Notes under the pieces: generated by a model | Told to the model about the DNA's origin: nothing | Databases searched by the model: none | What the model saw: only the letters and a program-made list of their open reading frames with translations | NCBI GenBank assembly: GCA_903831455.1 | Contig: CAIKXV010000027.1 | Span: forward strand, 39,208-103,207 | Source of the DNA: an uncultured Pseudomonadota bacterium | Lineage (GTDB): Bacteria; Pseudomonadota; Gammaproteobacteria; Burkholderiales; CAIKXV01 | Direction of reading: 5' to 3' | Length of the DNA: 64,000 nucleotides | Made by a program: the position numbers and the translations under genes | Shown here: positions 31,261 through 46,513 of the stretch, piece after piece | Layout: each line of letters begins with the position of its first letter | How positions within the stretch are numbered: the first letter of the stretch is position 1

Positions 31261-33726
31261 TTACTGCTGGCCCAGGTAGATGTAGATCGCACGATTGCCG
31301 TCGCGCGCCGCACCGTAGGCCAGGTAGAACGGCCCCAGCGGCGTGTCGATCGCGAGGAACACGCTCCCGGAGACCAGCGTGCCGCGCGGCGAGGCCGCGA
31401 ACAGCGGATCGCGAACCTCGGCCAGTTCGAGCGAGGCGCCGAGATAGCTGCCCTCGAACAGCCCGCGGCGCTGCCACTGGTTGAGGTAGGTCATCCGTCC
31501 GTACAGCAGCGACTGACCCAGCAACTGATTCGGCGCGTAGCCGGACTGGCGATGGAAGCCTCCCCACTGCACCAGGTCGTACCCGGGCAGTCGGTCGTCT
31601 CCGATCGCGCCCGCGGCGCGCACGGCCGTCTGCAGCGTATGGATACCCCAGGAGCGTGCGGCCAGCCCGTCGACGTCGTAGCGCTGGAAACGATCGCTCG
31701 CCCCCAGCGACGGGGTGGACGCATAGAGGTGGCCGAGCCCGCGATATCCGGCGCGCGGGATGCGCGCGCTATCGAGTCGGTCGACGGCCACACGGGCGAC
31801 GAAGCCGCCCTCGTCGTAGGTCTGGCGGGTACGTCCGAAGAGCACCGGACCGGTGTCGAGTTCGATCAGGTTGCGACCGACCCGCACCCCGGCGCGCAGC
31901 TCGCCGTACTGCTCGATCTGCGCTCCGAGATCGACGCCGATCCGGGCGACCGTCTGCTGGTACTGGCCGACGCGGATGTTCCCCTCGTACACCGGGATCG
32001 GCCGGCGGAACATGTCGAGACGGGGCGCGACGAACACCGACTGGTTGACCGCCAGCGGCTGGTAGAACTCCGACAGCAGCCGGCTCTCGCGCCCGACCTG
32101 CAGGTCGTTCCGCCACTCCGCACCCAGAGCGTTCATCCACGTCCGCCGGTAGCTCGCCAGAAGCGAGTAGTAGGACTCGCCTCCGAACTCGCTCGCGAGG
32201 CTCAGGCCGAGCCGCAGGTAGTCCGGTCCCCAGGCCTTCTCGGGCGCCTTGACCGACAGCACCTGGCGCCCCGACTCCTCGAGCAGTTCGTAGCTCACGT
32301 GCTCGAAATCGCCGCGCCCGTAGATGCGGCGCAGGTCGGCATCCAGCGTCGGCTGGTCGAGCGGCTGCCCGACCCGCGTCTGCATGCTGCCGACCACCAC
32401 GGCCGGATTGACGCGCTCGAGCCCGGTCACCCTGATCTCGTCGACGGTGCGCGTGGGCGCCTCGCGGACGCGGGAACGGGCCTGCTGCCAGTCCCGGTAT
32501 CCATCGGGGTCCATCGACAGGCGGGCGAGTCGGTTCCCGACAGACCGGGCGGCCGCCTCTCCGACGGGCACGGCGGTGGGCATCCGGTTGAAGTCGGCCG
32601 AAGACAAGTCGCCGAGCGCGGGCTCGATCAGGATGTCTCGCGGGCCGAGGCTCGCCACGGAGGCGCGGACGTTGCTCTCGGTGAGGAGGCCGATCACCTG
32701 CACGCTCACCGCGAGCAGCGAGTCGATCTGCGCGCGCTTGAGCAGCGGCGTGCCGACGTTGACCGCGATCACCACGTCCGCGCCCATCGCCCGCGCCTCC
32801 TCGACCGGCAGGTTGCGCACGAGCCCGCCGTCGACGAGCAGGCGCCCGTCGATCTCGATCGGGGCGATCGCGCCGGGCACCGCCATGCTCGCGCGCATCG
32901 CCGAGGCCAGGCTGCCGCGCGCCAGCCGCACCGCGTCCCCGTTCTCCACGTCGGTCGCCATGGCCATGAACGGGATGGGCAGCTTCGAGAAGTCGGTCTC
33001 GCCCGATACGGTCAGCAGCCGCCGCAATACCGCCTCGAGCGCCACACCCGACACGGCGCCTCGCGGCGCCTGGATCCGTCCGCCGCGAAAGCCGAACTCC
33101 GGCCCGAGGAAAGGCAGGTAGTCGTCGGCTCTCCGGCGCAACGGCAGGTCGACCCGCGCCGGACGATCGTCGAGCAGCGTGGGCGTATCGAGTTCGGGCA
33201 GCAGCCGTTCCAGTTCCGCGACCGTCGTGCCCGACGCATAGGCTGCGCCGACGATCGCGCCCATGCTCGTCCCGGTGATGATGTCGATCGGAATGCGCAT
33301 CTGCTCGAGCGCCTTGAGTACGCCCAGGTGTGCGGCGCCCCGCGCGCCACCGCCCGAGAGCACCAGCGCGATCCGCGGGCGGCGCGCGTTCGCCGCGCCC
33401 GCCTCGCCCTGCCCCACGGTCGCCGACCCCATCGACTGCCCGGGCCGGGCAGCCGGGTCCGCGTGAGGACCGCTCGACGGATCGGCGGCGCGGGCGGGCG
33501 TGGCTGCGCGGTGCGTCGGGTCGGACGTCGCGACGACGGCAGCCGCCGGGGCGCGAGTCGCGGTGGCGGCCGATGGACCCCCGGCCGATCCCACGCCCGG
33601 CGGCAGGCCCAGCCCGATGACCGCCAGGATCCGCAGGGCGAGGCCGAGGTGGCGAGCACCACCGCCGACCGACTTGCGGACTCCGCACCCGTTGCCCGCC
33701 GAGCCGCCCCCCGGATACCGATTCAT
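31261..33726 (-). CDS. PlpD-like patatin phospholipase with POTRA and Omp85-type beta-barrel (type Vd secretion architecture)
   Basis: Signal-like N-terminus. Patatin motifs LSGGGARGAAHLG, GTSMG (GxSxG) and DGG. Then a POTRA-like IRVTGLERVNPAVVVGSMQTRVGQPL and a long beta-strand-rich C-terminus ending in aromatic-rich YIYLGQQ. ATG 33726 overlaps the hslR stop (ATGA). Confidence 0.85.
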   Translation of the reverse strand: MNRYPGGGSAGNGCGVRKSVGGGARHLGLALRILAVIGLGLPPGVGSAGGPSAATATRAPAAAVVATSDPTHRAATPARAADPSSGPHADPAARPGQSMGSATVGQGEAGAANARRPRIALVLSGGGARGAAHLGVLKALEQMRIPIDIITGTSMGAIVGAAYASGTTVAELERLLPELDTPTLLDDRPARVDLPLRRRADDYLPFLGPEFGFRGGRIQAPRGAVSGVALEAVLRRLLTVSGETDFSKLPIPFMAMATDVENGDAVRLARGSLASAMRASMAVPGAIAPIEIDGRLLVDGGLVRNLPVEEARAMGADVVIAVNVGTPLLKRAQIDSLLAVSVQVIGLLTESNVRASVASLGPRDILIEPALGDLSSADFNRMPTAVPVGEAAARSVGNRLARLSMDPDGYRDWQQARSRVREAPTRTVDEIRVTGLERVNPAVVVGSMQTRVGQPLDQPTLDADLRRIYGRGDFEHVSYELLEESGRQVLSVKAPEKAWGPDYLRLGLSLASEFGGESYYSLLASYRRTWMNALGAEWRNDLQVGRESRLLSEFYQPLAVNQSVFVAPRLDMFRRPIPVYEGNIRVGQYQQTVARIGVDLGAQIEQYGELRAGVRVGRNLIELDTGPVLFGRTRQTYDEGGFVARVAVDRLDSARIPRAGYRGLGHLYASTPSLGASDRFQRYDVDGLAARSWGIHTLQTAVRAAGAIGDDRLPGYDLVQWGGFHRQSGYAPNQLLGQSLLYGRMTYLNQWQRRGLFEGSYLGASLELAEVRDPLFAASPRGTLVSGSVFLAIDTPLGPFYLAYGAARDGNRAIYIYLGQQ

Positions 33727-34100
33727 GTCCCCCCCCGCCATCGTTCGAGGTCGCGTCGCTCGCGCTTGGTCGGGCGCCCGGTCCGCTCGCCCCAGGACCC
33801 CGCCTCGCGAGCCGCTGCCTCGGCTTGCCGCCGCGCCGCACTGGCGACCGTCTCCTCGTACAGCGCCCGCGCCTGCTGCGCGCCGCCGCGCCGCTCGATC
33901 ACGCCGAGCACCCTCACCTCCCATGCCTGGCCGCCGGCCCGAACCTCGACCGTGTCGCCCGCGGCCACCTCGCGCGAGGGCCGTGCCCGCTCGCCGTTCA
34001 CCCGCACATGGCCTGCGCTCACCGCACCCTGCGCGAGCGTGCGGGTCCGGAAGAACCGTGCCACGTGCAGCCAGCGATCGACGCGCAAGGAATCGCTCAC
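33723..34100 (-). CDS. hslR: ribosome-associated heat shock protein Hsp15 (S4 RNA-binding domain)
   Basis: LRVDRWLHVARFFRTRTLAQGAVSAGHVRVNGERARPSREVAAGDTVEV is an S4-domain/Hsp15 pattern with a basic C-tail. GTG 34100 overlaps the upstream stop (GTGA). Confidence 0.8.
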   Translation of the reverse strand: MSDSLRVDRWLHVARFFRTRTLAQGAVSAGHVRVNGERARPSREVAAGDTVEVRAGGQAWEVRVLGVIERRGGAQQARALYEETVASAARRQAEAAAREAGSWGERTGRPTKRERRDLERWRGGT

Positions 34101-35365
34101 AGCGGCCTCTGCCGGGTGGACGGACGCCGCAACTTCGCGCGCACCCACTGCGCGAAACGGTGGCAGTCGAACTCCTGCGGCACGTAGACGCCGTGGCTGA
34201 AGCCACGTGCCGTCACGCCCCGCTGCTGCCATTCGCAGTTGCGTGCATCCTGCGCATTGGTGACGCGCCACACCGACAGGTAATGCTCGAGGTCGAAGCC
34301 GGGGCGCGACACGGCCTCGGGCTCGAACAGCCAGTCGTAGACGATGCGCACCCGCCCCGGCCCGACCGGAAACACGAGGTGCGCGTTCACGTAGTCCGGA
34401 TGCAGGTTGAGGAACAGGTTCGGCGGCAGCAGCGCCGGCTGGTAGGGCAATCGACGCTCCGCCTCGCCGAGCCCGCGGAAGGGCGGCACGCGCGAGCGAC
34501 CGTCCGGCGTGAGCGTCTCGGTTCCCGGCCGGAACTGGGGCGTGGGCTCGATCCGCGGCGCTGCGTCGCGGCCGCGGCGCAGGCCCCACGCGCCGCCCTC
34601 GCGGTAGGCCGGCACCAGCCGGCACAGTTCGGGGTGCACCGGCGGGCAGTGGAAGCACTCGCAGAAGTTCTCGCAGACGAGTTTCCAGTCGGCGGCCACC
34701 TCGACCTCCAGCCGGTGGCCGACCACCAGTCCCTCGAGGCCGTAGCCCGCGAGGCGCTCCGGCATCCAGCCCAGGCTCTCGCGCAGCGGGGCGACCGTGC
34801 CCGTACCCAGGTTCACGAACACGAAACCGCCCCACAGGTCGGCCCGGACCGCCAGCAGGCCCAGGCGATCGGCATCGAAATCCGGCGTGGGCATGCGCCG
34901 CGGGGTCGATTGCAGCCGACCGTCGAGCCGGTAGCTCCACGCGTGGTAGGGACAGGTGATGCGCCCCCCGCGCAAGCGACCGGAGGCCTCGGTACACAGG
35001 ATCGATCCGCGGTGCCGGCAGGTGTTGTGGTAGGCCCGGACCGTGCCCGCGTCGTCGCGCACGAGCAGCAGGGACTGCCCGGCGAGATCGACCACGCGAT
35101 AGTCGCCGGGCGCGGCCAGCTCGTCGGCCCGGGCCACCGCGATCCAGCTGCCGAACCAGATCCGGTCGACCTCTCGTCGGTGGTGGTCCGCGTCGTGGTA
35201 CCAGTGCCCCGGCAACCCCTGCGCCAGGCGACCGAGCGGCTCGCGGATCGGACCGCGCGACTGCGTGGCCGCCGGCGCGCGAGCGACCGCGGGCTGCCCG
35301 GCCGCAGCGGCAGCCGGACCCTTGCGCGCGAGGCGGGTGCCGCGGGACGGTGTGCGATTGGCCAT
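34097..35365 (-). CDS. Rieske [2Fe-2S] aromatic-ring-hydroxylating oxygenase alpha subunit (GbcA/CntA/choline-monooxygenase-like)
   Basis: Rieske motif CRHRG-x17-CPYHAW. Mononuclear iron motif ENFCECFHCPPVHPE. ATG 35365 has no good SD. The N-terminal 40 aa are Arg/Ala-rich. Confidence 0.85.
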   Translation of the reverse strand: MANRTPSRGTRLARKGPAAAAAGQPAVARAPAATQSRGPIREPLGRLAQGLPGHWYHDADHHRREVDRIWFGSWIAVARADELAAPGDYRVVDLAGQSLLLVRDDAGTVRAYHNTCRHRGSILCTEASGRLRGGRITCPYHAWSYRLDGRLQSTPRRMPTPDFDADRLGLLAVRADLWGGFVFVNLGTGTVAPLRESLGWMPERLAGYGLEGLVVGHRLEVEVAADWKLVCENFCECFHCPPVHPELCRLVPAYREGGAWGLRRGRDAAPRIEPTPQFRPGTETLTPDGRSRVPPFRGLGEAERRLPYQPALLPPNLFLNLHPDYVNAHLVFPVGPGRVRIVYDWLFEPEAVSRPGFDLEHYLSVWRVTNAQDARNCEWQQRGVTARGFSHGVYVPQEFDCHRFAQWVRAKLRRPSTRQRPL

Positions 35366-35427
35366 GGGCGGGAGTCTATCGCCACTGGCCACGACGCCGA
35401 CGACTCCCCATCGCGTCGCGCGCGCGC

Positions 35428-35433
35428 TATAGT
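35428..35433 (+). promoter_or_regulatory. candidate -10 hexamer positioned for a leaderless transcript of the nitrile-hydratase-family operon
   Basis: The sequence reads TATAGT-TTTCACC-ATG(35441). There is no SD. The hexamer sits in a 75-bp divergent spacer. The -35 is poor (TCCCCA). Confidence 0.3.
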
Positions 35434-35440
35434 TTTCACC

Positions 35441-35821
35441 ATGAAGACCACGTCCACCCCCCCTGTACACGAGTCGGCGGCCCCGGTCGGTCGCTGCGGC
35501 TACCACGACATCGGCGGACTCACCGCCGGAGCGATCGACCCTGCCGAAGAGCCGGTGGAGTTCTGGCACAAGCAGAACGAGGCCCTCCGCGGGCTGCTGG
35601 GCGACCCGCTGCGGCGCATGGTGTCGGTCGATGAAGTCCGGCGCGCCTTCGAGTCGTTCGGCGAGGACAAGTACAACCGCCTCTCCTTCTACGAGCGTCG
35701 ACTCGAGGCCATGCTCGACATCCTCGTCGAGAAGGGACTCATCGACCGCGAGACCTTCATGCGCAGGGTCGAGGCCGAACTCGCCGCGCGAGGCGCGGCG
35801 GCACCGGTGGCGTCGCGATGA
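35441..35821 (+). CDS. nitrile hydratase beta subunit, N-terminal-half polypeptide (thiocyanate hydrolase beta-like)
   Basis: 126 aa. GYHDIGGL ... EEPVEFWHKQNEALRGLL ... LSFYERRLEAMLDILVEKGLI matches the N-terminal domain of NHase beta subunits. It ends where the SH3-like domain would begin. Confidence 0.8.
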   Translation: MKTTSTPPVHESAAPVGRCGYHDIGGLTAGAIDPAEEPVEFWHKQNEALRGLLGDPLRRMVSVDEVRRAFESFGEDKYNRLSFYERRLEAMLDILVEKGLIDRETFMRRVEAELAARGAAAPVASR

Positions 35822-36138
35822 ATCCGCTGGCGGCCGCACCGCGGCCCGCGTGCGGCGAGCCGCGCTTCGTGCCCGGGGACCGGGTCCGGGTGCTGGACCT
35901 GCCTCGCCCCGGCCATGTACGCACCCCGCACTATGTCCGCCACAAGGTGGGGACGGTCGTCGAATACACCGGCCTGTTCCTCAACCCCGAGGACCTCGCC
36001 TACGGACGCTGCAGTGGCCCGGCCGTCAATGGCTACCGGGTCGTCTTCGACCAGTCGCACCTGTGGCGCGACTACCGGGGCAGCGGCAGCGATCGCCTGT
36101 TCATCGAACTGTACGAGCACTGGCTGGAGAGGGCCTGA
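35818..36138 (+). CDS. nitrile hydratase beta subunit, C-terminal SH3-like-half polypeptide (thiocyanate hydrolase alpha-like)
   Basis: 106 aa. FVPGDRVRVLDLPRPGHVRTPHYVRHKVGTVVEY ... YRVVFDQSHLW ... IELYEHWLE matches the C-terminal domain of NHase beta. ATG 35818 overlaps the upstream TGA (ATGA). Confidence 0.8.
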   Translation: MNPLAAAPRPACGEPRFVPGDRVRVLDLPRPGHVRTPHYVRHKVGTVVEYTGLFLNPEDLAYGRCSGPAVNGYRVVFDQSHLWRDYRGSGSDRLFIELYEHWLERA

Positions 36139-36142
36139 CCCG

Positions 36143-36808
36143 ATGCCGCACGACGCGCCCCACGGACACGATCACGACCACGACCACGACCCGCACGCGC
36201 CTGCCGCCGACCTCGGCGACGCACGCTCCCGTTGGTACGAGGTGGCCTCCGACGTGATGCGCGACATGCTGGTCGAGCGCCAGGTGCTCACCGCCCGCGA
36301 AGTGAGCCGCCAGATCGAGCTGATGGAGAGCAAGTCGATCCAGCTCGGGGGACGCCTCGTCGCCCGGGCGTGGACCGATCCCGACTTCCGCACCCGCCTG
36401 CTCGAGGACGGCAAGGCGGCCGCGGCCTCCATCGGCATCCCGATGACCGAGGCCGCGCTCAAGGTGGTCGAGGACACGCCTGCCGTGCACAACGTGATCG
36501 TCTGCACGCTGTGTTCCTGCTACCCGCGTTCGCTGCTCGGCCAGCCGCCCGCCTGGTACCGCAACAAGGCCTACCGCTCGCGCGTGGTGCGCGAGCCGCG
36601 CCAGGTCCTCGCCGAATTCGGCACCCGCGTGCCCGACGACGTCGAGATCCACGTGCACGACTCCAACGCCGACCTGCGCTTCATCGTGCTGCCGATGCGC
36701 CCGGCCGGCACCGAGCGGCTCGACGAGGCCGCCCTCGCCGCGCTCGTCACCCGCGACTGCCTGATCGGCGTGGCTCCGCCCCGGCTCCCCGACGTCGCGG
36801 CCGCCTAG
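36143..36808 (+). CDS. nitrile hydratase alpha subunit, cobalt-type (thiocyanate hydrolase gamma-like) with a His/Asp-rich N-terminus
   Basis: Metal-binding VCTLCSCYPR (CTLCSC is the Co-type signature). RQVLAEFG ... LRFIVLPMRPAGTE ... VTRDCLIGV. The N-terminus is MPHDAPHGHDHDHDHDPH. GGAGAGG lies upstream. Confidence 0.9.
   Translation: MPHDAPHGHDHDHDHDPHAPAADLGDARSRWYEVASDVMRDMLVERQVLTAREVSRQIELMESKSIQLGGRLVARAWTDPDFRTRLLEDGKAAAASIGIPMTEAALKVVEDTPAVHNVIVCTLCSCYPRSLLGQPPAWYRNKAYRSRVVREPRQVLAEFGTRVPDDVEIHVHDSNADLRFIVLPMRPAGTERLDEAALAALVTRDCLIGVAPPRLPDVAAA
36167..36190 (+). repeat. hexanucleotide repeat (CACGAY)x4 encoding (His-Asp)4
   Basis: cacgatcacgaccacgaccacgac, read directly. It lies inside the 5' end of the alpha-subunit gene. 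Confidence 0.9.
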
Positions 36809-36927
36809 CACGCCTGCGGGCTGCGGCCGCGATCGGTCGCGGCCCGCAGTGGCACGGCTCTTGCGTCGCCCCGGGGCGTCCGCGTCGGGTCCACCCGGAC
36901 CACCGGCGGATCGCCCGGAGGGTCGCC

Positions 36928-37923
36928 ATGCCGAAGTCCCGTATTGTCGTCGCGAGCGCGCCGCACGCGCTCGCCTGCGCCTTGGCCGTCGGCCTCGCGG
37001 GGTCGGGCCTGCTGCTCGCCCAGGACTTCCCGACGCGGCCGATACGGCTGGTGGTGCCCTTCGCGGCGGGTGGAGTGTCGGACATCATCGGGCGCGTGCT
37101 GGCTGCACGCTTGCAGGAGCCGTTCGGCCAACCGGTGATCGTCGACAACCGCGGCGGCGCCGGCGGCTCGATCGGCAGCGATCTGGTCGCCCGTGCCCAA
37201 CCGGACGGGCACACCTTCCTCCTGGGCAGCAACGGCACGCACGCGATCGTGCCCCACCTCTACAAGCGCCTGCCCTACGACCCGATCCGGGACTTCACGC
37301 CCATCGGCATGGTGGCGATCACCCCGACCGTGCTCGCGGTCAACCCGGATCTGCCGGCGCGCACGGTGCGCGAACTGATCGCCCTCGCCCGCGCCCGGCC
37401 CGGACAGCTGGCCTTCGGATCGTCCGGGATCGGCAGCACCTCCCACCTCGCCGGCGAGATGCTGGCCGCGCTGGGCGCCGTCAGCATCAACCATGTCCCG
37501 TACAAGAGCGCGTCGGCCGCCTACCCGGACGTGTTCGGCGGGCGGATACCGCTGATCTTCGACAGCGTGCTGTCGATGACGCCCTACCTCAAGGCGGGAA
37601 AGCTGCGGGCGCTCGCCGTCACCACGCCGCGCCGCGTCGCGACCCTTCCCGACGTGCCGACGATGGCCGAGGCCGGGCTCGCCGGCTACTCGGTCACCCT
37701 GTGGATCGCGACCTTCGGTCCCGCGGGACTGCCGCCCGCGATCGCCATGCGCCACGTGAAGGCGCAGCAGGCGGTACTCTCCGCGCCCGAGGTGCGCGAG
37801 CAGCTCGGCGCGCAGGGTGCGGAGATCGCCGCCGGCACGCCGGCCGAACTCGCTGCGGCGGTCGTCTCCGATCTCAAGCGCATGGGCGAACTCGTGCGCG
37901 CTGCGAAGATCGAGCCGCAATGA
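36928..37923 (+). CDS. Bug-family (TTT) periplasmic solute-binding protein
   Basis: Signal peptide ...GLLLAQDFPTRPIRLVVPFAAGGVSD, DNRGGAGG, HVPYKSASAA. ATG 36928 lies 5 nt after GGAGGG. Confidence 0.9.
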   Translation: MPKSRIVVASAPHALACALAVGLAGSGLLLAQDFPTRPIRLVVPFAAGGVSDIIGRVLAARLQEPFGQPVIVDNRGGAGGSIGSDLVARAQPDGHTFLLGSNGTHAIVPHLYKRLPYDPIRDFTPIGMVAITPTVLAVNPDLPARTVRELIALARARPGQLAFGSSGIGSTSHLAGEMLAALGAVSINHVPYKSASAAYPDVFGGRIPLIFDSVLSMTPYLKAGKLRALAVTTPRRVATLPDVPTMAEAGLAGYSVTLWIATFGPAGLPPAIAMRHVKAQQAVLSAPEVREQLGAQGAEIAAGTPAELAAAVVSDLKRMGELVRAAKIEPQ

Positions 37924-39044
37924 TCGCCCCCGGCCCACTGGCGAACACCCGCGCCCCCCGGCCTGCACGGCGCGATCCGGCATCGACGCAGCCGCCAGGA
38001 CACGCATCCGGACACATCCGTGCCCTTGCCCTCACCCGGGCCGGTCCATCCGCCCCGGCGGCCCTTGCCGGTACCGGCACGGCACGACGCGCACTGGCCG
38101 TGGCCTCGCTCGGTGCCGCGTCGCTGATCGCTGGCCCGGCCGCGGCCGCCGACTACCCCAGCCGACCGATCCGCTTCGTCATTCCGTTCGCCGCCGCCGG
38201 AGTCTCCGACATCGTGGCTCGAACGCTCGGCGCCCGCCTCCAGGACTCGCTCGGCCAGCCGGTCATCTACGACAACCGCGGAGGCGCGGGCGGCACGATC
38301 GGCACCGACCTGGTGGCGCGTGCATCGCCCGACGGACACACGCTGGGCATCGGCAATCTCTCCACGCACACGATCGCACCGAGCGTGTACCGCAAGCTGC
38401 CCTACGATCCACTCCGCGACTTCGCGCCCCTCAGCCTGGTGGCCACTGCGCCCAACGTGATGGCGGTCAGTGCCGCCCTTCCGGCGAAGACGCTCAAGGA
38501 CGTGATCGCCCTGTCGCGGACCCGGTCGCTCTCCTTCGCGTCCTCGGGCACCGGCACGGTGTTCCACCTGGCCGGCGAGATGGTCAACGTCTCGGCCGGG
38601 ATCTCCCTGGTCCACGTCCCGTACAAGGGCGTCGCGGCCGCCTATCCGGAGGTCATCGCCGGCAGCGTGCCGCTGATCTTCGACAGCCTGATCTCCGCGA
38701 CGGGCCATATCCGCGCCGGACGCATCCGTCCGATCGCGCAGACCGGTGCCCGGCGCTCGCCCGTGCTGCCCGACGTGCCGACGATGGCCGAGGCCGGGCT
38801 GCCCGGGGTCGTCCTCGATTTCTGGCTGGGCTTCTTCGCGCCGGCGGGCACGCCCGCTCCCGTGGTGGGTCGCCTCAATGGCGACATCCTGAAGGCCCTT
38901 GCGATCCCCGAGGTCCGGCAGCAGTTGGCCGCCCAGGGCGCCGATGTGGTCGGCAGCAGCCCGGAGGCGCTGCGCGAGCAGATCCGCACGGGCATACCCC
39001 GGATGGCCGCGCTCGTGAAGGCCGCGCGGATCGACCCGGAATGA
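37920..39044 (+). CDS. Bug-family (TTT) periplasmic solute-binding protein
   Basis: ARRALAVASLGAASLIAGPAAAADYPSRPIRFVIPFAAAGVSD, DNRGGAGG, HVPYKGVAAA. The only in-frame ATG (37920) overlaps the upstream stop (ATGA). It gives an unusually long roughly 55-aa pre-signal region, so the start is uncertain. Confidence 0.85.
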   Translation: MIAPGPLANTRAPRPARRDPASTQPPGHASGHIRALALTRAGPSAPAALAGTGTARRALAVASLGAASLIAGPAAAADYPSRPIRFVIPFAAAGVSDIVARTLGARLQDSLGQPVIYDNRGGAGGTIGTDLVARASPDGHTLGIGNLSTHTIAPSVYRKLPYDPLRDFAPLSLVATAPNVMAVSAALPAKTLKDVIALSRTRSLSFASSGTGTVFHLAGEMVNVSAGISLVHVPYKGVAAAYPEVIAGSVPLIFDSLISATGHIRAGRIRPIAQTGARRSPVLPDVPTMAEAGLPGVVLDFWLGFFAPAGTPAPVVGRLNGDILKALAIPEVRQQLAAQGADVVGSSPEALREQIRTGIPRMAALVKAARIDPE

Positions 39045-39264
39045 GTGCGAGGCCACCGCGCGCGAAAGCCGCCCCCCCCGCGAGGTGACGGCTCCCCGGC
39101 CGCGCGACGCACGCGGGGCTGGCGGCCGGATGGCGGCTGGCGCCGATCGATCGCGGTGGGGCGGCGAGGCGTGATCGCCGCGGCCGGCACCTTCGGTCGC
39201 ACCGCGCCCGGGAAACCGGTCGGGCGAGCGAGGCTCTCGCCGCGTGCGCTTCGGCCGTCGGGGT

Positions 39265-39903
39265 TCAGATCGGCCGAGGCTCGATCGCGATGCGAAGGGC
39301 GAGTGCGAACAGCACCGCGCCCAGCACCCAGCGTTGCGCAGCCAGCCACCCGGGATGCTCGGCAAACGTGCGCGCGATCGCGCCCGCGGTGAGCACCAGC
39401 CACAGGTCGAAGACGACGCTCACCGCCATCTGGACCGCGCCCAGCAGCATCGACTGCGCGAACACGCTGCCGCGCGCCGGATCGACGAACTGCGGGAACA
39501 GCGCGAGGTAGAACATCGCGACCTTCGGGTTGAGCACGTTGGTGAGCATCCCCTTCGTGAACAGGACGGTCGTCCGCTCCGGCGCCAGCGGTCGCGGCGC
39601 AAACGGAGAGGCGCCCCCGGGTCGAACCGCGTCCCACGCCATCCAGGCCAGCCATCCGGCACCGGCATACTTGACCAGGTCGAAGGCCGGCGGCCACCAG
39701 CGGAACACCACCGACAGACCGGCAGCCGCCGCGACCCCATGCACGGCGAAGCCCGCAAGCACGCCCGCCAGCGAGACCACGCCGGCACGACTGCCCTGGC
39801 AGATCGCGCGCGACAGCAGGTAGGCCATGTTCGGACCGGGCGTGACCACCAGTACCACGCAGGCAGCCCCGAAGAGCGCGAGTTCGTCGAACGGGATCAG
39901 CAT
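39265..39903 (-). CDS. LysE/RhtB-family amino acid exporter
   Basis: 212 aa and about 6 TM segments. The N-terminal VVTPGPNMAYLLSRA and the mid-protein NVLNPKVAMFYLALFPQF are signatures of the LysE superfamily. Confidence 0.85.
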   Translation of the reverse strand: MLIPFDELALFGAACVVLVVTPGPNMAYLLSRAICQGSRAGVVSLAGVLAGFAVHGVAAAAGLSVVFRWWPPAFDLVKYAGAGWLAWMAWDAVRPGGASPFAPRPLAPERTTVLFTKGMLTNVLNPKVAMFYLALFPQFVDPARGSVFAQSMLLGAVQMAVSVVFDLWLVLTAGAIARTFAEHPGWLAAQRWVLGAVLFALALRIAIEPRPI

Positions 39904-42108: not shown

Positions 42109-43329
42109 TCAGATGACCCCGTCGGCCCGCAGCGCCTCGAACTCCGCCTCGTCCATGCCCAGCCGCTCGAGATAGATCTCGCGGTTGTGCACGCCCATCG
42201 GGAGGCCCGCGTGCGCGATGCGCCCCGGCGTCTCGGACAACCGCGGCTGCACCCGCGGCATGCGCAGCCGCCCGAGCTCGGGGTCGTCGATCTCGGTGAG
42301 CGCCTCGCGGGCGATCATGTGCGGATCCTCGGCCAGGTCGCGAAAGTCGGCGATGGGCGCTGCAGCCACCTCCGCCGCGAGCAGCCGCTGCATGCAGTCG
42401 CGCTGGTCGAGGGAGGCCACCCACTCCCCGACGATGGCATCGAGTGCGTCGACGTTGGCGAGCCGGGCCTGGTTGGTGGCGAAGCGCTCGTCCTCGAGCA
42501 GGTCGGCGCGCCCCATCTCCCGGAACAGCCGCTCGGTGATCGCCTGCGTCGAACCGGCAATCGCGATCCAGCGTTCGTCGCGCGTGCGATAGGTGTTGCG
42601 CGGCGCCGAGCCTGTCGTGCGGTTGCCTGCGCGCCGCCCGGGAAGACCCAGCTGGTCCCACGAGACGGCATGGCCGGTCAGCACCGTGTACAGGGACTCC
42701 ACCAGGCTGGTGTCGATCGACTGGCCACGCCCCGTTGCACGGGCATCGCGGCGGTAGAGCGCGAGCATCACCCCGATCGTGGAATACAGCGCGGCGGTGG
42801 TGTCGGCCAGCGGGAAAGGCGGCAGCGTCGGCGGCCCGTCGGGCTGGCCGGTGATGTGGGCGAAGCCGCTCATCGCCTCGGCCAGCGTGCCGAAGCCCGG
42901 ACGGTCGCGATAGGGCCCCGTCTGCCCGAAACCCGACACGCGCACCATCACCAGCCCGGGGCTCAACTCGCGCAGCGACTCGTAGCCCAGGTTCCATCGT
43001 TCGAAGGTACCGGCGCGAAAGCTCTCGATCAGCACGTCGGCCTTCAGGCGCTGCACCAGTCGCCTGAACAGCGCCTGTCCACCGGGCTTGCTGAGCGAGA
43101 GCGTGATGGTCTTCTTGTTGCGGGAGAGCTGCTTCCAGACGAGCGGAACGCCCCCCTTGTTGCGCCCGAAGTAGCGCCCCTGATCGCCACCCTGCGGGTT
43201 CTCGACCTTGATCACCTCGGCACCGAAGTCGCCCAGGATCATCGCGATCGTCGGCCCGGCCACCACCTGCCCGCAATCGATCACCGTGATGCCGGAGAGC
43301 GGCAGTTCGCCCGACGTCTGCTCACTCAT
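42109..43329 (-). CDS. family III CoA-transferase (CaiB/BaiF/Frc-like)
   Basis: GITVIDCGQVVAGPTIAMILGDFGAEVIKVE and SRNKKT motifs. 406 aa. Confidence 0.9.
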   Translation of the reverse strand: MSEQTSGELPLSGITVIDCGQVVAGPTIAMILGDFGAEVIKVENPQGGDQGRYFGRNKGGVPLVWKQLSRNKKTITLSLSKPGGQALFRRLVQRLKADVLIESFRAGTFERWNLGYESLRELSPGLVMVRVSGFGQTGPYRDRPGFGTLAEAMSGFAHITGQPDGPPTLPPFPLADTTAALYSTIGVMLALYRRDARATGRGQSIDTSLVESLYTVLTGHAVSWDQLGLPGRRAGNRTTGSAPRNTYRTRDERWIAIAGSTQAITERLFREMGRADLLEDERFATNQARLANVDALDAIVGEWVASLDQRDCMQRLLAAEVAAAPIADFRDLAEDPHMIAREALTEIDDPELGRLRMPRVQPRLSETPGRIAHAGLPMGVHNREIYLERLGMDEAEFEALRADGVI

Positions 43330-44218
43330 GCCCGCGCCCTCCGCGCGCCGCCGACTCGGCCCAGGCCATCACGCGCCGGGCGGTATCGACCATCGCGTAG
43401 TCGACCATGGTGCCGTCGACCGTGGTGGCCGCGGAGCCCCGCGCCACCGCGGCATCGAAGGCCTCGATCACCCGCCGGTAGTAGTCGAGCTCGCGGGCAG
43501 TCGGCATGAAGATTCCGTTGACCACCGGCACCTGCGCCGGGTGGATGCACGACTTGCCACGATAGCCGAGCCGGCGCACCGTCTCGCAGCACTGGCGCAG
43601 TCCGTCCTCGTCGCGAATGCGCGCGTAGGTGCCGTCGAGCACGTGCGCGACACCGGCTGCCTTGGCCGCCAGCAGCACCCGCGATCGCACGTAGAGCACC
43701 TCGGTGCCCTCGGGCGACCACTGGTAGCCGAGGTCGGCCTGCAGGTCCCCGTCCTGCGCGGTGCCGCAACTCACCGCATTGACCCTCGGCGAGGCCGCGC
43801 AGATCTCGTGGGCGTTCCAGACGCCGCGCGCGGTCTCGAGGCTGGGGCAGATGCGCACCGAGCCTGGCGGCATCCCCGCGCGCGCCTCGCGCTCGCCGAT
43901 CAGCCGGTCCACTTCGCGCACCGTCGCAGCCGAGTCGGTCATCGCCAGGCGGACCGCCGCGAGCCCGGGGCGCACGATCGCCTCCAGATCCGCCTCGAGC
44001 CATCCGGTGGAGATCGCGTTCACCCGAACGTAGAGCACGTGGCGCGAACCGTTGAGCCCGATGTAGTCGTGGGCGATGTCCCGCGCCCGCGCCTTCTCGG
44101 CTACGGGTACCGAGTCCTCGAGGTCGAGGATGAGCGCGTCGGCACCGCTGCGCGGCGCCTTGCCCAGCATGTCCTCGCGATTGCCCGGCACGAACAGCAG
44201 GCTGCGGGGACCGCTCAC
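43322..44218 (-). CDS. HpcH/HpaI aldolase / citrate lyase beta (CitE)-like acyl-CoA lyase
   Basis: SLLFVPGNREDMLGKAPRSGADALILDLEDSV and ETARGV / IHPAQV motifs are typical of CitE/malyl- or citramalyl-CoA lyases. There is an 8-nt overlap with the CoA-transferase gene. Confidence 0.85.
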   Translation of the reverse strand: MSGPRSLLFVPGNREDMLGKAPRSGADALILDLEDSVPVAEKARARDIAHDYIGLNGSRHVLYVRVNAISTGWLEADLEAIVRPGLAAVRLAMTDSAATVREVDRLIGEREARAGMPPGSVRICPSLETARGVWNAHEICAASPRVNAVSCGTAQDGDLQADLGYQWSPEGTEVLYVRSRVLLAAKAAGVAHVLDGTYARIRDEDGLRQCCETVRRLGYRGKSCIHPAQVPVVNGIFMPTARELDYYRRVIEAFDAAVARGSAATTVDGTMVDYAMVDTARRVMAWAESAARGGRGHE

Positions 44219-44258
44219 GACGGTCCCCGGAAACCGTGGCCGGCCCGATACCCCTGCC

Positions 44259-45235
44259 TCACTGGGCCGTCAATCCCGCTGCCTGCACGACCTTGCGCCA
44301 CTTCTCCACCTCCGAGCGAATGAACTGCGCGAAAGGCGCTGGGCCATCGCCGTTGATCGAATAGCCGATCTCCACCAGCCGCCGCGACGTCTCCTCGCGC
44401 CGCAGCGCGTCGGACACGGCGGCGTGGAACGCGGACACGACCTCGGCCGGCGTGCCGGCAGGCACCATCGTGCCGTGCCAGAAGCCCGACTCAGCCCCCG
44501 GGAACCCGGCTTCCCCCACGGTCGGCACGTCCGGCAGCACGGGAATGCGCCGGCCGTCCATCGCCGCGATCGCGCGCAGGCGACCCGACCGCACATGCGG
44601 CAGCGCAGAGGCCAGCGGCGCGAAGTAGACTGCGCTCTCGCCCGCGACCATCGCGTTGATCGCCTCGCCTCCCCGCGGTACGGCACATGCAGCATGTCGA
44701 CGCGTGCGACCAGGCGGAACAGCTCGCCACCGATGAAGGTGGGCGAGCCGGCACCGGCCGATGCGTAGTTGATCGCGCCCGGGCGCGACCGCGCCAGCGC
44801 CACCAGCTGTTTCACGGTCTTCACCGGCAGCGACGGATGCACCACCAGCAGCGCCGGCGAGGCGCCGATATTCGTCACCGCGGTGAAGTCCCGCAGCAGG
44901 TCGTAGCCCAGTTTCGGGTACAGCGTGGCATTCACGCTGTGGCTGAAGTTGACCTGCAGCACCGTGTAGCCGTCGCGCGGCGCCTTGGCCACGAACTCGG
45001 CGGCGATGTTGCCTGCGGCGCCCGCACGGTTCTCCACGACGATCGGCTGCCCGGTCGACTGGGACACACCGTTGGCGAGGATTCGACCCACGGTGTCGGC
45101 GCCCGACCCGGCTGAATTGGGCATGATCCATCGCACCGGCTTGGCTGGCCAGCCCTGCGCCAGTGCCGGGCCTGCCACGCTGACGGCCAGCAGCGCCGCA
45201 ACCGGCGCGAGGGTACGCGCGCGTCGACGGTTCAT
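44259..45235 (-). pseudogene. Bug-family solute-binding protein gene interrupted by a frameshift
   Basis: The N-terminal two-thirds (MNRRRARTLAP...MLHVPYRG) read in the frame of ORF 44270..45373. The C-terminal third (GEAINAMVAGE...KWRKVVQAAGLTAQ) reads in the frame of ORF 44259..45350. The switch is at the G4 run (plus-strand cccc at 44671-44674). One extra G would restore HVPYRGGGEAI. Confidence 0.75.
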
Positions 45236-45311
45236 GGTCTCTCCTCCCGTCGGGTCGTGGGCGACGCCCGTCCGCGTCTCGTCCGCCAGGCCCGATCTTC
45301 CGTGGAGTCGC

Positions 45312-45340
45312 GTTATTGCACGCGTCCCGGGAGGCGTCAA
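45312..45340 (-). promoter_or_regulatory. candidate sigma70 promoter for the Bug(pseudo)-CitE-CaiB operon
   Basis: On the minus strand: TTGACG (45340-45335), a 17-nt spacer ending in TGC, then AATAAC (45317-45312). It lies about 75 nt upstream of ATG 45235. Confidence 0.4.
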
Positions 45341-45369
45341 GTCCGCGCACCGCGCAGGGGCGATGCGTA

Positions 45370-45391
45370 CCACCGTCCGCGCCGACGGTGG
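45370..45391 (-). terminator. candidate hairpin terminator after the amidohydrolase gene
   Basis: CCACCGTC-N6-GACGGTGG (8-bp stem) lies 26 nt downstream of the stop at 45417. There is no U tract. Confidence 0.4.
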
Positions 45392-45416
45392 AGGTCCATC
45401 GGCGCGGGAGCCCGCT

Positions 45417-46409
45417 TCAGCGTGTCTCGCCGAGCAGCGTCATCGCGGTGCCGCAGCAGATCTGATCGCGCTCGGCGGGCGTGAGCCGCGGCACGCGGTC
45501 CAGGTTGTCCACCGGGGCCTCGTCGCCCATGTCGAACGGGGAGTCGGTACCCAGCACGCAGTGGTCGGCGCCGACGCTGTCGATCAGGTGGCGGGTGGAC
45601 TGCGGGTTGTGCGTGAGGCAGTCGTAGTAGAAGCGCTGGAAGTGGTCGATCGGCGAGGTGGTGGACAGCGTGCGCGCCTCGGGGCGCACCGCATGCCCGT
45701 GCCGGAAACGGCCGATCTGGTAGGGCACGTAGCCGCCCCCGTGGGCGAGCAGGAAACGCAGCTTGGGCACCTCGTCGAGCGCGCCGCTGAACATCATGTT
45801 GGCGGTGAAGATGGTCGTCTCGAGCGGATTGCCGATCATGTTGATCAGGTAGTACTTGTCCAGGCCCATGTCCGTGCACCACCAGTTCGGGTGGATGAAC
45901 ATGAACACGCCGAGCTTCTCGGCCGCCCGCAGCAGCGGCCGGTAATAGAGATCGGCAATCTGGCGATCGTTGACCGCCGCCTGGATCTCGACCGCGCGGA
46001 AGCCGTGCTCGCGCACCGCGCGCTCGAGCTCCTCGATCGAGGCTTCGACGTCCTGCATGGGGAGTGTCGCCATGCCGCGCAGGCGGTCCGGACGCTTCGC
46101 CACCATGGCGGCGATCCCGTCGTTGGCGAGCCGCGCCATCCGGCGCCCGATCTCGGGCTTCGTCCAGTAGTAGAAGGTCGGCGGGGCGGCCGAGATCACG
46201 GAGATGTCGATGCCCTTGCGCTCCATCGCCTCGACCTTGGCGTCGGCGTCGTAGTACTCGGGCACCAGCGGGAAGCTGTTCTCCTTGCGCACCACCCGGC
46301 GGTTGTCGCCCTCGCCCTCGATGCGGGTGTTGAAGTTCTCGGGGTCGGCCAGCACCGCGTCGATCACGCCCTGCGGGATCACGTGGTTGTGAAGGTCGTA
46401 GCGCTTCAT
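45417..46409 (-). CDS. amidohydrolase-2 family protein (ACMSD-like metal-dependent decarboxylase/hydrolase)
   Basis: MKRYDLHNHVIP (HxH), FMFIHP, LAHGGG and GTDSPFD metal-ligand pattern are typical of Amidohydro_2 / ACMSD-type enzymes. Confidence 0.8.
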   Translation of the reverse strand: MKRYDLHNHVIPQGVIDAVLADPENFNTRIEGEGDNRRVVRKENSFPLVPEYYDADAKVEAMERKGIDISVISAAPPTFYYWTKPEIGRRMARLANDGIAAMVAKRPDRLRGMATLPMQDVEASIEELERAVREHGFRAVEIQAAVNDRQIADLYYRPLLRAAEKLGVFMFIHPNWWCTDMGLDKYYLINMIGNPLETTIFTANMMFSGALDEVPKLRFLLAHGGGYVPYQIGRFRHGHAVRPEARTLSTTSPIDHFQRFYYDCLTHNPQSTRHLIDSVGADHCVLGTDSPFDMGDEAPVDNLDRVPRLTPAERDQICCGTAMTLLGETR

Positions 46410-46513
46410 CTCGGGGCTCCGTGGCGGTCGGGATGCCGGCCGCGCGGGGGCGCGCAGGCATCGGCGGGGAAACGGCGCCCGCTCATCGGGCAGGCGGGGG
46501 CCGCGGCCGCGAG

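Follow-up and report, generated by a model that had tools for sequence, protein, structure and literature searches.

What enzyme do three short, adjacent open reading frames (ORFs) of an uncultured Burkholderiales bacterium encode, and on which substrate does it act? The genes lie on contig CAIKXV010000027.1 of assembly GCA_903831455.1, within a stretch of 64,000 nucleotides (positions 39,208 to 103,207 of the contig) that was analyzed in full and is called the window here. An initial annotation, made from the sequence alone, had described them as a split-β, cobalt-type member of the nitrile hydratase (NHase) family arranged like thiocyanate hydrolase (SCNase). Our analysis indicates that the three ORFs probably encode a functional cobalt-dependent NHase-family enzyme composed of βN, βC and α subunits, for which a small polar or anionic nitrile would be the most likely substrate. 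Within this reading, we assign the enzyme with high confidence to a split-β, activator-less, cobalt-type NHase family and predict it to be very probably active, while the evidence that its substrate might be an anion is about evenly balanced. The three genes are as follows.

35441-35821, + strand: βN (ORF1), N-terminal half of an NHase β subunit; 126 aa; Pfam NHase_beta_N, E 5.9e-11
35818-36138, + strand: βC (ORF2), SH3-like C-terminal half of an NHase β subunit; 106 aa; Pfam NHase_beta_C, E 1.7e-19
36143-36808, + strand: α (ORF3), catalytic metal-binding subunit; 221 aa; Pfam NHase_alpha, E 6.2e-76

All three ORFs exceeded the Pfam gathering scores (NHase_beta_N, PF21006; NHase_beta_C, PF02211; NHase_alpha, PF02979). 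The ATG of βC shares an ATGA with the TGA of βN, a case of translational coupling, and α starts 5 nt past the βC stop. On the 226 positions of the NCBIfam model nitrile_beta, βN covered 3-100 and βC 129-226; because the two proteins occupy separate parts of the model, the break is a clean domain split of a classical β subunit. Pfam matches and model coverage thus bore out the original assignment of the ORFs to a β N-terminal half, an SH3-like β C-terminal half and an α subunit. The α matches in the PDB were cobalt-type NHase α subunits (E 1e-52 to 1e-63), and the top match of βC was a cobalt-type NHase β subunit (3qxe_B, residues 119-218, E 7e-15).

Conservation and selection on the three ORFs are far beyond chance. 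Compared with four relatives, the ratio of nonsynonymous to synonymous substitution rates (dN/dS) was 0.09-0.36 across the three genes, indicating purifying selection, with values of 0.17-0.36 for βN. Proteins identical to the window trio, with the same neighbours, occurred on at least 20 contigs from metagenomes or metagenome-assembled genomes. The three genes therefore look functional. We consider it scarcely credible that they are decaying remnants, or that the α-like ORF is the precursor of a ribosomally synthesized and post-translationally modified peptide (RiPP) with an NHLP-type leader and no enzyme exists. Such a reading could draw on the NCBIfam NHLP-leader and TOMM models, which match parts of α, and on the scores of α and both β halves, which lie under the NHase equivalog cut-offs (for nitrile_beta, TIGR03888, 36.2 for βN and 71.8 for βC against a cut-off of 152.2, as expected for half-proteins). 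The NHLP matches, however, stem from the homology that is known to exist between such leader peptides and NHase α, and no RiPP maturation genes lie nearby. The α domain is full-length with an intact metal motif, the dN/dS values are those of genes under constraint, and the split architecture is kept in 72/80 genomes, as detailed below.

The predicted active site was located through the following features.

36503-36529, + strand: metal motif C121-T-L-C124-S125-C126-Y-P-R129 of α, cobalt-type, preceded by V120; Arg129 stands where classical enzymes have Trp
36146-36196, + strand: His/Asp-rich N-terminal tail of α (PHDAPHGHDHDHDHDPH), from the translation; such a tail is also found in 120/120 best homologues and in the SCNase γ subunit
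35639-35641, + strand: Arg67 of βN, equivalent to classical βArg52 by alignment to Arg52 of Pseudomonas putida 3qxe_B

The cobalt-type VCTLCSCYPR motif noticed at the outset is indeed present in α. In an alignment of α homologues, C121 to P128 were invariant and R129 nearly so, and both residues that mark the cobalt type, the Thr in the motif and the Tyr after it, occur in the window protein. The N-terminus of α, MPHDAPHGHDHDHDHDPH in translation, is likely a metal-handling tail. βArg52 of NHases hydrogen-bonds the oxidized cysteine ligands, and its βN equivalent, Arg67, was invariant in 76/76 sequences of the wider clade and in 59/59 of the narrower subclade to which the window belongs. βC retains the NHase-type motif G32-H-V-R35-T-P-H-Y39, of which Arg35 aligns with Arg149 of 3qxe_B; equivalents of Arg149/157 are conserved.

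From these conserved residues and established knowledge of the family, a catalytic cycle can be proposed. The α subunit would bind a non-corrin Co(III) through Cys121, Cys124, Cys126 and the backbone amides of Ser125 and Cys126, with Cys124 oxidized to a sulfinate and Cys126 to a sulfenate. Arg67 of βN and Arg35 of βC would hydrogen-bond the oxidized cysteines; the nitrile carbon would be attacked at the metal and the amide released. Neither a match to an accessory-protein model nor a second β-like ORF was found in the 64-kb window. The cluster contains no activator gene, and the enzyme probably matures without an activator, as does Streptomyces canus AnhDEA (below); the His/Asp-rich α tail may help in cobalt capture. 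The substrate would be of a carboxylate-bearing or N-cyano type; thiocyanate or a hydrophobic nitrile appears unlikely.

Could the trio instead be an SCNase (SCN- + 2 H2O -> COS + NH3 + OH-) operating in a heterotroph? The scn genes may run in the order β-α-γ. As references we used Thiobacillus thioparus SCNase sequences that are full-length identical to PDB chains 2dd4_C, 2dd4_B and 2dd4_A. The likeness is real: the α, β and γ subunits of this enzyme are homologous to βC, βN and α of the window, respectively, and it has a cobalt centre with CTLCSCYPR. The γ subunit (2dd4_C) starts with MSADHDHDHDHDHDH and contains VVCTLCSCYPRPILGQ, in agreement with the CYPR and His/Asp-rich N-terminus that the initial annotation had ascribed to it; LGQ after CYPR is common to both proteins as well, as is the three-subunit layout. 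The additional pocket arginines described below would suit an anion such as thiocyanate, and NitT/TauT ATP-binding cassette (ABC) transporters are found at true SCNase loci (PMC5328954) and at many relatives of the window alike.

Against this stand the outcomes of every test applied. The search proposed at the outset, with models separating SCNase from NHase subunits, gave 209.8 bits for α with the SCNase equivalog thiocyan_alph (TIGR03887; cut-off 291.45) and a higher score, 240.3, with nitrile_alph. Identity of the α core was 46% to SCNase γ and 51% to classical cobalt-type NHases. Over the compared proteins, identities to the T. thioparus subunits were 43-46% for α, 36% for βC and 28% for βN. 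The alignment of α with γ (43% identity) has a 12-residue gap opposite an SCNase insertion (γ ~residues 93-115), and βN lacks the N-terminal extension of SCNase β, with 19 residues before its GYHDIGG compared with 47 before the corresponding HDVGG. βN gave no PDB match to SCNase β at E<=1. Where the SCNase α subunit has FYTRTMTY, βC has GHVRTPHY, the NHase-type GHxRxPxY. In a neighbour-joining tree (177 columns, 200 bootstrap replicates), T. thioparus SCNase and the scnC products of Roseomonas and Azospirillum formed a clade with 100% bootstrap and the window outside it; the window grouped with three relatives (homologous loci are labelled L plus a number; here L086, L087 and L095) at 100% and with L088 at 90%. 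Deep nodes of this tree are without resolution, and we make no claim on where the SCNases branch inside the larger group. At genuine SCNase loci, the neighbours include a NitT/TauT ABC transporter together with genes for sulfur oxidation and cobalt uptake (PMC5328954), and a review describes an activator in the order α-β-γ-activator (PMC7193024). By contrast, no NitT/TauT transporter, activator, cyanase, sulfur-oxidation or cobalt-uptake genes lie within ~20 kb on either side of the window genes.

The features that the window does share with SCNase are clade-wide and do not discriminate. The idea that a split β, CYPR and a His tail mark an SCNase had to be abandoned, as all three are shared with a very large clade that includes an ordinary Streptomyces plasmid NHase. 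A split β is not universal in SCNases either, because the scnC genes (named by the NCBI annotation pipeline) on plasmids of Roseomonas marmotae (L152 5020-6669) and Azospirillum ramasamyi (L153 5027-6669), which match 2dd4_C at E 1e-110, are each preceded by a gene for one 283-aa protein in which SCNase β and α are fused. CbtAB or HupE cobalt transporters, TauE/SafE sulfite exporters and insertion sequence elements lie near these two scnC genes. The cut-off, clade, insertion, β-subunit motif and gene-context tests all failed; no test applied makes the window enzyme a thiocyanate hydrolase, and we rate the SCNase reading as very improbable.

How general is the split? The 120 best α homologues (55-96% identity) all had CTLCSCYP, followed by R in 119 and K in 1. 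A genome scan with one genome per species yielded 80 loci, from groups including Alpha-, Beta- and Gammaproteobacteria, Rubrobacter, Chloroflexota, Binatia, Nitrospinota and Latescibacterota, with these architectures.

68/80 loci: βN, βC and α as separate adjacent ORFs
4/80 loci: order βC, α, βN
4/80 loci: in-frame βN-α fusion without βC nearby
4/80 loci: interrupted by a contig end

A single fused β was sought in all 80 loci and found in none (0/80). With β split in 72/80 genomes and fused in none, the split goes back to the ancestor of a very large clade and is not a local mutation, one of the outcomes that the initial annotation had listed as refuting its reading. A HMMER search for family representatives (150 in total) also returned βN-α, βC-α and βN-βC-α fusions, many of the last 420-610 aa long. 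The in-frame βN-α fusions, of ~310-340 aa and with βC undetectable nearby, were seen in L023, L044, L073 and L082 and in representatives P0123, P0124, P0126, P0129 and others; in such enzymes βC is either dispensable or encoded elsewhere. Neighbour clustering across the 80 loci revealed no conserved gene context beyond the three NHase genes. The commonest other neighbour families were ABC ATPases (16), DUF1223 (11) and aconitase (10), with TctC in only 8.

Isolate plasmids extend this picture. Streptomyces sp. NBC_01176 encodes βN (111 aa), βC (102 aa) and nthA (226 aa; CTLCSCYPRP, His-rich N-terminus; 55.7% identity to window α), with a HoxN-type Ni/Co transporter three genes downstream of nthA. 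This plasmid replaced L009 ('uncultured Streptomyces') as the stand-in for the S. canus enzyme; the latter was dropped because its sequence is proteobacterial-like and may be mis-binned. Rhizobium leguminosarum and Burkholderia plasmids carry the βC-α-βN variant beside CbtAB (Rhizobium) or HoxN (Burkholderia) cobalt transporters, and in L092, a close relative of window α, a HupE/UreJ permease follows. These Ni/Co transporters beside homologues support cobalt dependence. On the plasmid of Burkholderia sp. PAMC 26561 (L154 5454-5924), βC is 156 aa long and has, at its N-terminus, an extension similar to a twin-arginine signal (SRRSWLKALAASGAAVA), a hint that the NHase complex may be exported in folded form; genes for cyanase and an ABC transporter lie near this NHase. 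RefSeq labels βN 'SH3-like domain-containing protein' (L150 6579-6911; L154 6578-6910) despite its match to the NHase β N-terminal domain. βC carries the same label; split-β NHases are therefore poorly recognized by the annotation pipeline.

Among characterized systems, the window cluster belongs with the three-subunit cobalt-type NHases without an activator that are already known (AnhDEA and ToyJKL type). A split β is a feature of ToyJKL, the toyocamycin NHase of Streptomyces rimosus. It resembles the window in this described layout and differs in context, as no deazapurine biosynthesis genes (GTP cyclohydrolase, QueC/D/E-like) were seen near the window. ToyJKL is cited as the second three-subunit NHase alongside AnhD-AnhE-AnhA of S. 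canus CGMCC 13662, which needs no activator and whose βN-like AnhD acts as a metal and subunit-swapping chaperone (PMC7329996). The window resembles AnhDEA in its gene order βN, βC, α, in its cobalt type and in the lack of an activator gene; the AnhDEA subunits of 10.4, 11.4 and 21.3 kDa (PMC7329996) are of the same order of size as the 126, 106 and 221 aa here. Placement of the window in the AnhDEA clade goes through the Streptomyces sp. NBC_01176 homologue with its CTLCSCYPR and His-rich α N-terminus. Differences exist in the βN motif (TYYERW, clade-typical, in that homologue compared with FYERR and extra arginines in the window), in gene context (aquaporin and HoxN at the AnhDEA-type Streptomyces locus, TctC and a Rieske gene in the window) and in the AnhDEA substrates, which are neutral N-cyanoimine insecticides (PMC7329996).

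Classical cobalt-type NHases (Pseudonocardia thermophila 1ire/4ob1, Bacillus 1v29/2dpp and P. putida 3qxe) are the top PDB matches for α and βC and share CTLCSCYP and the conserved β arginines, with a core α identity of ~51%. They differ from the window in having a single β of ~220-230 aa, a downstream activator and Trp after CYP, where the window has a split β, TctC after α and Arg129. The NHase of the eukaryote Monosiga brevicollis has a His-rich stretch before its α domain. It lacks an activator, as does the window, with its domains fused in one chain rather than distributed over three (PMC2603476).

What sets the window apart from all these enzymes is its predicted pocket. The split-β kind itself was already known; the new element here is a subfamily with FY[E/R]RR in βN. 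Its members are marked by CTLCSCYPRS in α and F83-Y84-(E/R)-R86-R87 in βN, with the following replacements.

35687-35701, + strand: βN F83-Y84-E85-R86-R87, the subclade signature, replacing YYERW (classical Tyr68-Tyr69-x-His71-Trp72) in alignments
β68: Tyr in P. putida, Tyr in 72/76 of the wider clade, Phe in 58/59 of the subclade (window Phe83)
β72: Trp in P. putida, Trp in 61/76 of the wider clade, Arg in 56/59 of the subclade (window Arg87)
β37: Leu in P. putida, mixed in the wider clade (Met 23, Arg 16, Leu 12), Arg in 59/59 of the subclade (window Arg50)

The signature position reads YY(E/G)(R/K)W in the wider clade, the isolate plasmids and SCNase, and YYEHW in classical enzymes; Tyr84, the Tyr69 equivalent adjacent to Phe83, is retained in the aligned window βN. 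The classical pocket is hydrophobic (β37, β48, β51, Tyr68, Trp72), and β37 is a substrate-tunnel residue (PMC7193024). In the window, Arg129, Arg50, Arg87 and Phe83 correspond to pocket positions, so that the predicted pocket would gain three arginines (α Arg129, βN Arg50 and Arg87) and lose three hydrophobic or aromatic residues.

A second line of evidence comes from the genes directly downstream.

36928-37923, + strand: TctC/Bug-family solute-binding protein 1, 120 nt downstream of α; Pfam TctC
37920-39044, + strand: TctC/Bug-family solute-binding protein 2, overlapping TctC-1 by 4 nt; Pfam TctC

The PDB relatives matched by both proteins are all carboxylate binders (TctC-1 against a terephthalate-binding protein, E 4e-68). 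In the lineage of the window (the window itself, L086, L087, L090 and L095), 2 to 4 TctC genes follow α, and an ABC importer and biuret amidohydrolase (BiuH) are absent. Downstream of the NHase in L086, L087 and L090 lie orthologues of TctC-1 (66-81% identity), and these loci also have TctC-2 orthologues (72-88%). At L088, a non-syntenic locus, the same TctC subfamily (58-63% identity; 58% for the TctC-2 orthologue) again follows the NHase, which is itself preceded by co-oriented genes for allophanate hydrolase and an HpxZ/AtzH-like protein. NHase-linked TctCs share 50-88% identity among themselves and 25-46% with the other paralogues compared (window 44259-45236 and the upstream copy of L087), to which TctC-2 is only ~40% identical. 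The subfamily is apparently dedicated to, and co-inherited with, this NHase lineage. We regard a small polar or anionic nitrile as the most likely substrate because of the arginine-substituted pocket together with a TctC subfamily that travels with the NHase lineage. Of the two substrates named at the outset, the anionic nitrile thus gains some support from the pocket arginines and the linked solute-binding proteins, while thiocyanate fails the SCNase tests.

The enzyme might also be an ordinary broad-range NHase for neutral aliphatic or aromatic nitriles, similar to that of S. canus, with TctC and the Rieske gene adjacent by coincidence. TctC genes are very abundant in Burkholderiales, three more unrelated copies lie near the locus, and gene context in the wider clade is unconserved, all of which would fit. 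So would the characterized three-subunit NHase, which hydrates the neutral xenobiotic nitriles acetamiprid and thiacloprid (PMC7329996). We nevertheless consider this unlikely: two hydrophobic β pocket or tunnel residues have become Arg in the subclade and are nearly invariant, on top of Arg129; the downstream TctC subfamily accompanies the NHase even at a non-syntenic locus; and a dedicated importer lies beside the NHase in 44/62 subclade loci (below), which argues that the substrate is not membrane-diffusible.

Several points weigh against a functional NHase for small polar or anionic nitriles. The α score of 240.3 falls just below the nitrile_alph (TIGR01323) cut-off of 249.85. The pocket positions were mapped via sequence alignment alone. 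Arg129 is clade-wide and hence says nothing specific on the window enzyme. βTyr68 is regarded as catalytically important in classical NHases, and this conserved residue (P. thermophila numbering) is Phe83 in the window, which could mean altered chemistry. The abundance of TctC genes in the order, noted above, has the same bearing, and 4/5 of the TctC-linked loci are syntenic, so that vertical inheritance could account for a large part of the linkage. The window has neither an amidase nor a cobalt transporter nor a TctA/TctB membrane component, so that a complete pathway cannot be traced in it.

A metagenome scan with a βN alignment added 55 loci and brought the analyzed total to 62.

44/62 loci: NitT/TauT-type ABC components, in most cases directly upstream and co-oriented
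16/62 loci: isochorismatase-family gene, directly after α in most
6/62 loci: allophanate hydrolase (745 against a cut-off of 511)
7/62 loci: formamidase or FmdA-type amidase

The isochorismatase-family representatives tested, from L089 and L138, scored 402.8 and 428.4 with the NCBIfam BiuH model (cut-off 370). A recurrent operon, NitT/TauT-type importer followed by βN-βC-α and an isochorismatase-family gene, sometimes with allophanate hydrolase, was seen in L053, L089, L111, L112, L121, L122, L125, L131, L134, L135, L137 and L138. At L147 (6096-10911; also L146 and L148), a 350-aa βN-α NHase is accompanied by a GbcA-like Rieske gene, an isochorismatase-family gene, an HIBADH-like dehydrogenase, an AtzD/TrzD-family ring-opening amidohydrolase and ABC genes, with a non-adjacent βC-like ORF ~4.5 kb downstream of the NHase. 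Judged by gene content, most subclade members look like modules of importer, hydratase and amide hydrolase for nitrogen-rich compounds. L088 and L147 argue for some functional coupling of the NHase and its neighbours.

These operons raise the prospect that the window enzyme hydrates an N-cyano anion (N-cyanourea, dicyanamide or an N-cyano-carboxylate) to a ureido product that enters the biuret/allophanate pathway. N-cyanourea is the only nitrile that gives biuret on hydration, and the BiuH-scoring gene after α, the 16 isochorismatase-family loci and the 6 allophanate hydrolase loci would all fit. At L088, the closest non-syntenic relative, allophanate hydrolase, the HpxZ/AtzH-like gene, NHase and TctC lie on one strand, and L147 joins a βN-α NHase, an isochorismatase-family gene, an AtzD/TrzD-family enzyme and a Rieske homologue. 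Hydration of the dicyanamide anion by an NHase has been reported in vitro (PMC4133019). Yet a tblastn search of the 64 kb found no BiuH, allophanate hydrolase, NitT/TauT component, formamidase, HupE or extra β-like gene, and AtzD is also missing from the window. A natural source of cyanourea-type compounds is not established, and the argument from cyanourea to biuret is a chemical inference. Literature searches covering the CSCYPR motif and NHase together with biuret hydrolase, cyanourea, dicyanamide or cyanoguanidine found no paper on this subfamily and none that links NHase and BiuH. The NHase-BiuH link is therefore a lead, not a result, and for the window enzyme itself we consider N-cyano hydration quite improbable.

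On the opposite side of the trio lies a gene of a different kind.

34097-35365, - strand: Rieske oxygenase α subunit of the GbcA/Stc2/CntA/Ndm type, divergent, 75 bp upstream; Pfam Rieske and Ring_hydroxyl_A

The protein scored 190 bits with NCBIfam GbcA, far below the cut-off of 670, and its top PDB matches were 3n0q, 3vca, 4qup and 6y8j. The gene is conserved beside the NHase in L087 and L095, and a homologue is co-directional with the distant βN-α NHase of L147, making the oxygenase a possible partner of the NHase. It overlaps its downstream S4/HSP15-like gene by 4 nt (window 33723-35365, - strand) and may be co-transcribed with this heat-shock-type RNA-binding protein rather than form part of a catabolic operon. 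A scan of 35200-39400 detected no promoter-like sites and one terminator-like match, located in the divergent intergenic region, at about the level of shuffled sequence. Further downstream, the genes of 42109-46410 (- strand) look like a separate organic-acid catabolic cluster, partly conserved in L086 and L095. They encode a CoA-transferase of family III, a CitE/HpcH-like lyase that also matches, more weakly, the lyase RipC of itaconate degradation, another TctC and an Amidohydro_2 protein. The whole 64-kb window (1-64000) contains no tRNA genes and no Rfam matches at the gathering threshold.

The literature treats three-subunit NHases as curiosities, represented by ToyJKL, one Streptomyces enzyme and SCNase. 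Our data instead show the split-beta, activator-less, His-tailed form as the standard architecture of a very large clade spanning many phyla, the β halves of which the NCBI annotation pipeline names only 'SH3-like domain-containing protein'. For annotation, the lesson is that CYPR and a split β must not be read as thiocyanate hydrolase. The subfamily of the window sits in transport and amide-hydrolysis operons with NitT/TauT ABC components, BiuH, allophanate hydrolase, formamidase and AtzD-family enzymes. Speculatively, and with more doubt than confidence, we propose from these sequences that it is an environmentally widespread subfamily with an arginine-rebuilt pocket whose natural substrates may be small anionic N-cyano compounds or cyano-carboxylates (N-cyanourea, dicyanamide, N-cyano-carbamate or N-cyano-oxamate). 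The ureido products would pass to biuret hydrolase and allophanate hydrolase, and binding proteins of the tripartite tricarboxylate transporter type would replace the NitT/TauT importer in this Burkholderiales lineage. If true, this would constitute a previously undescribed entry route into biuret/allophanate nitrogen scavenging. Were the substrate identified, hundreds of genes annotated as 'nitrile hydratase' would acquire a physiological role, biocatalysis would gain useful activator-free NHases that accept charged substrates, and it might become clear how bacteria draw nitrogen from cyanamide-type or other charged nitriles.

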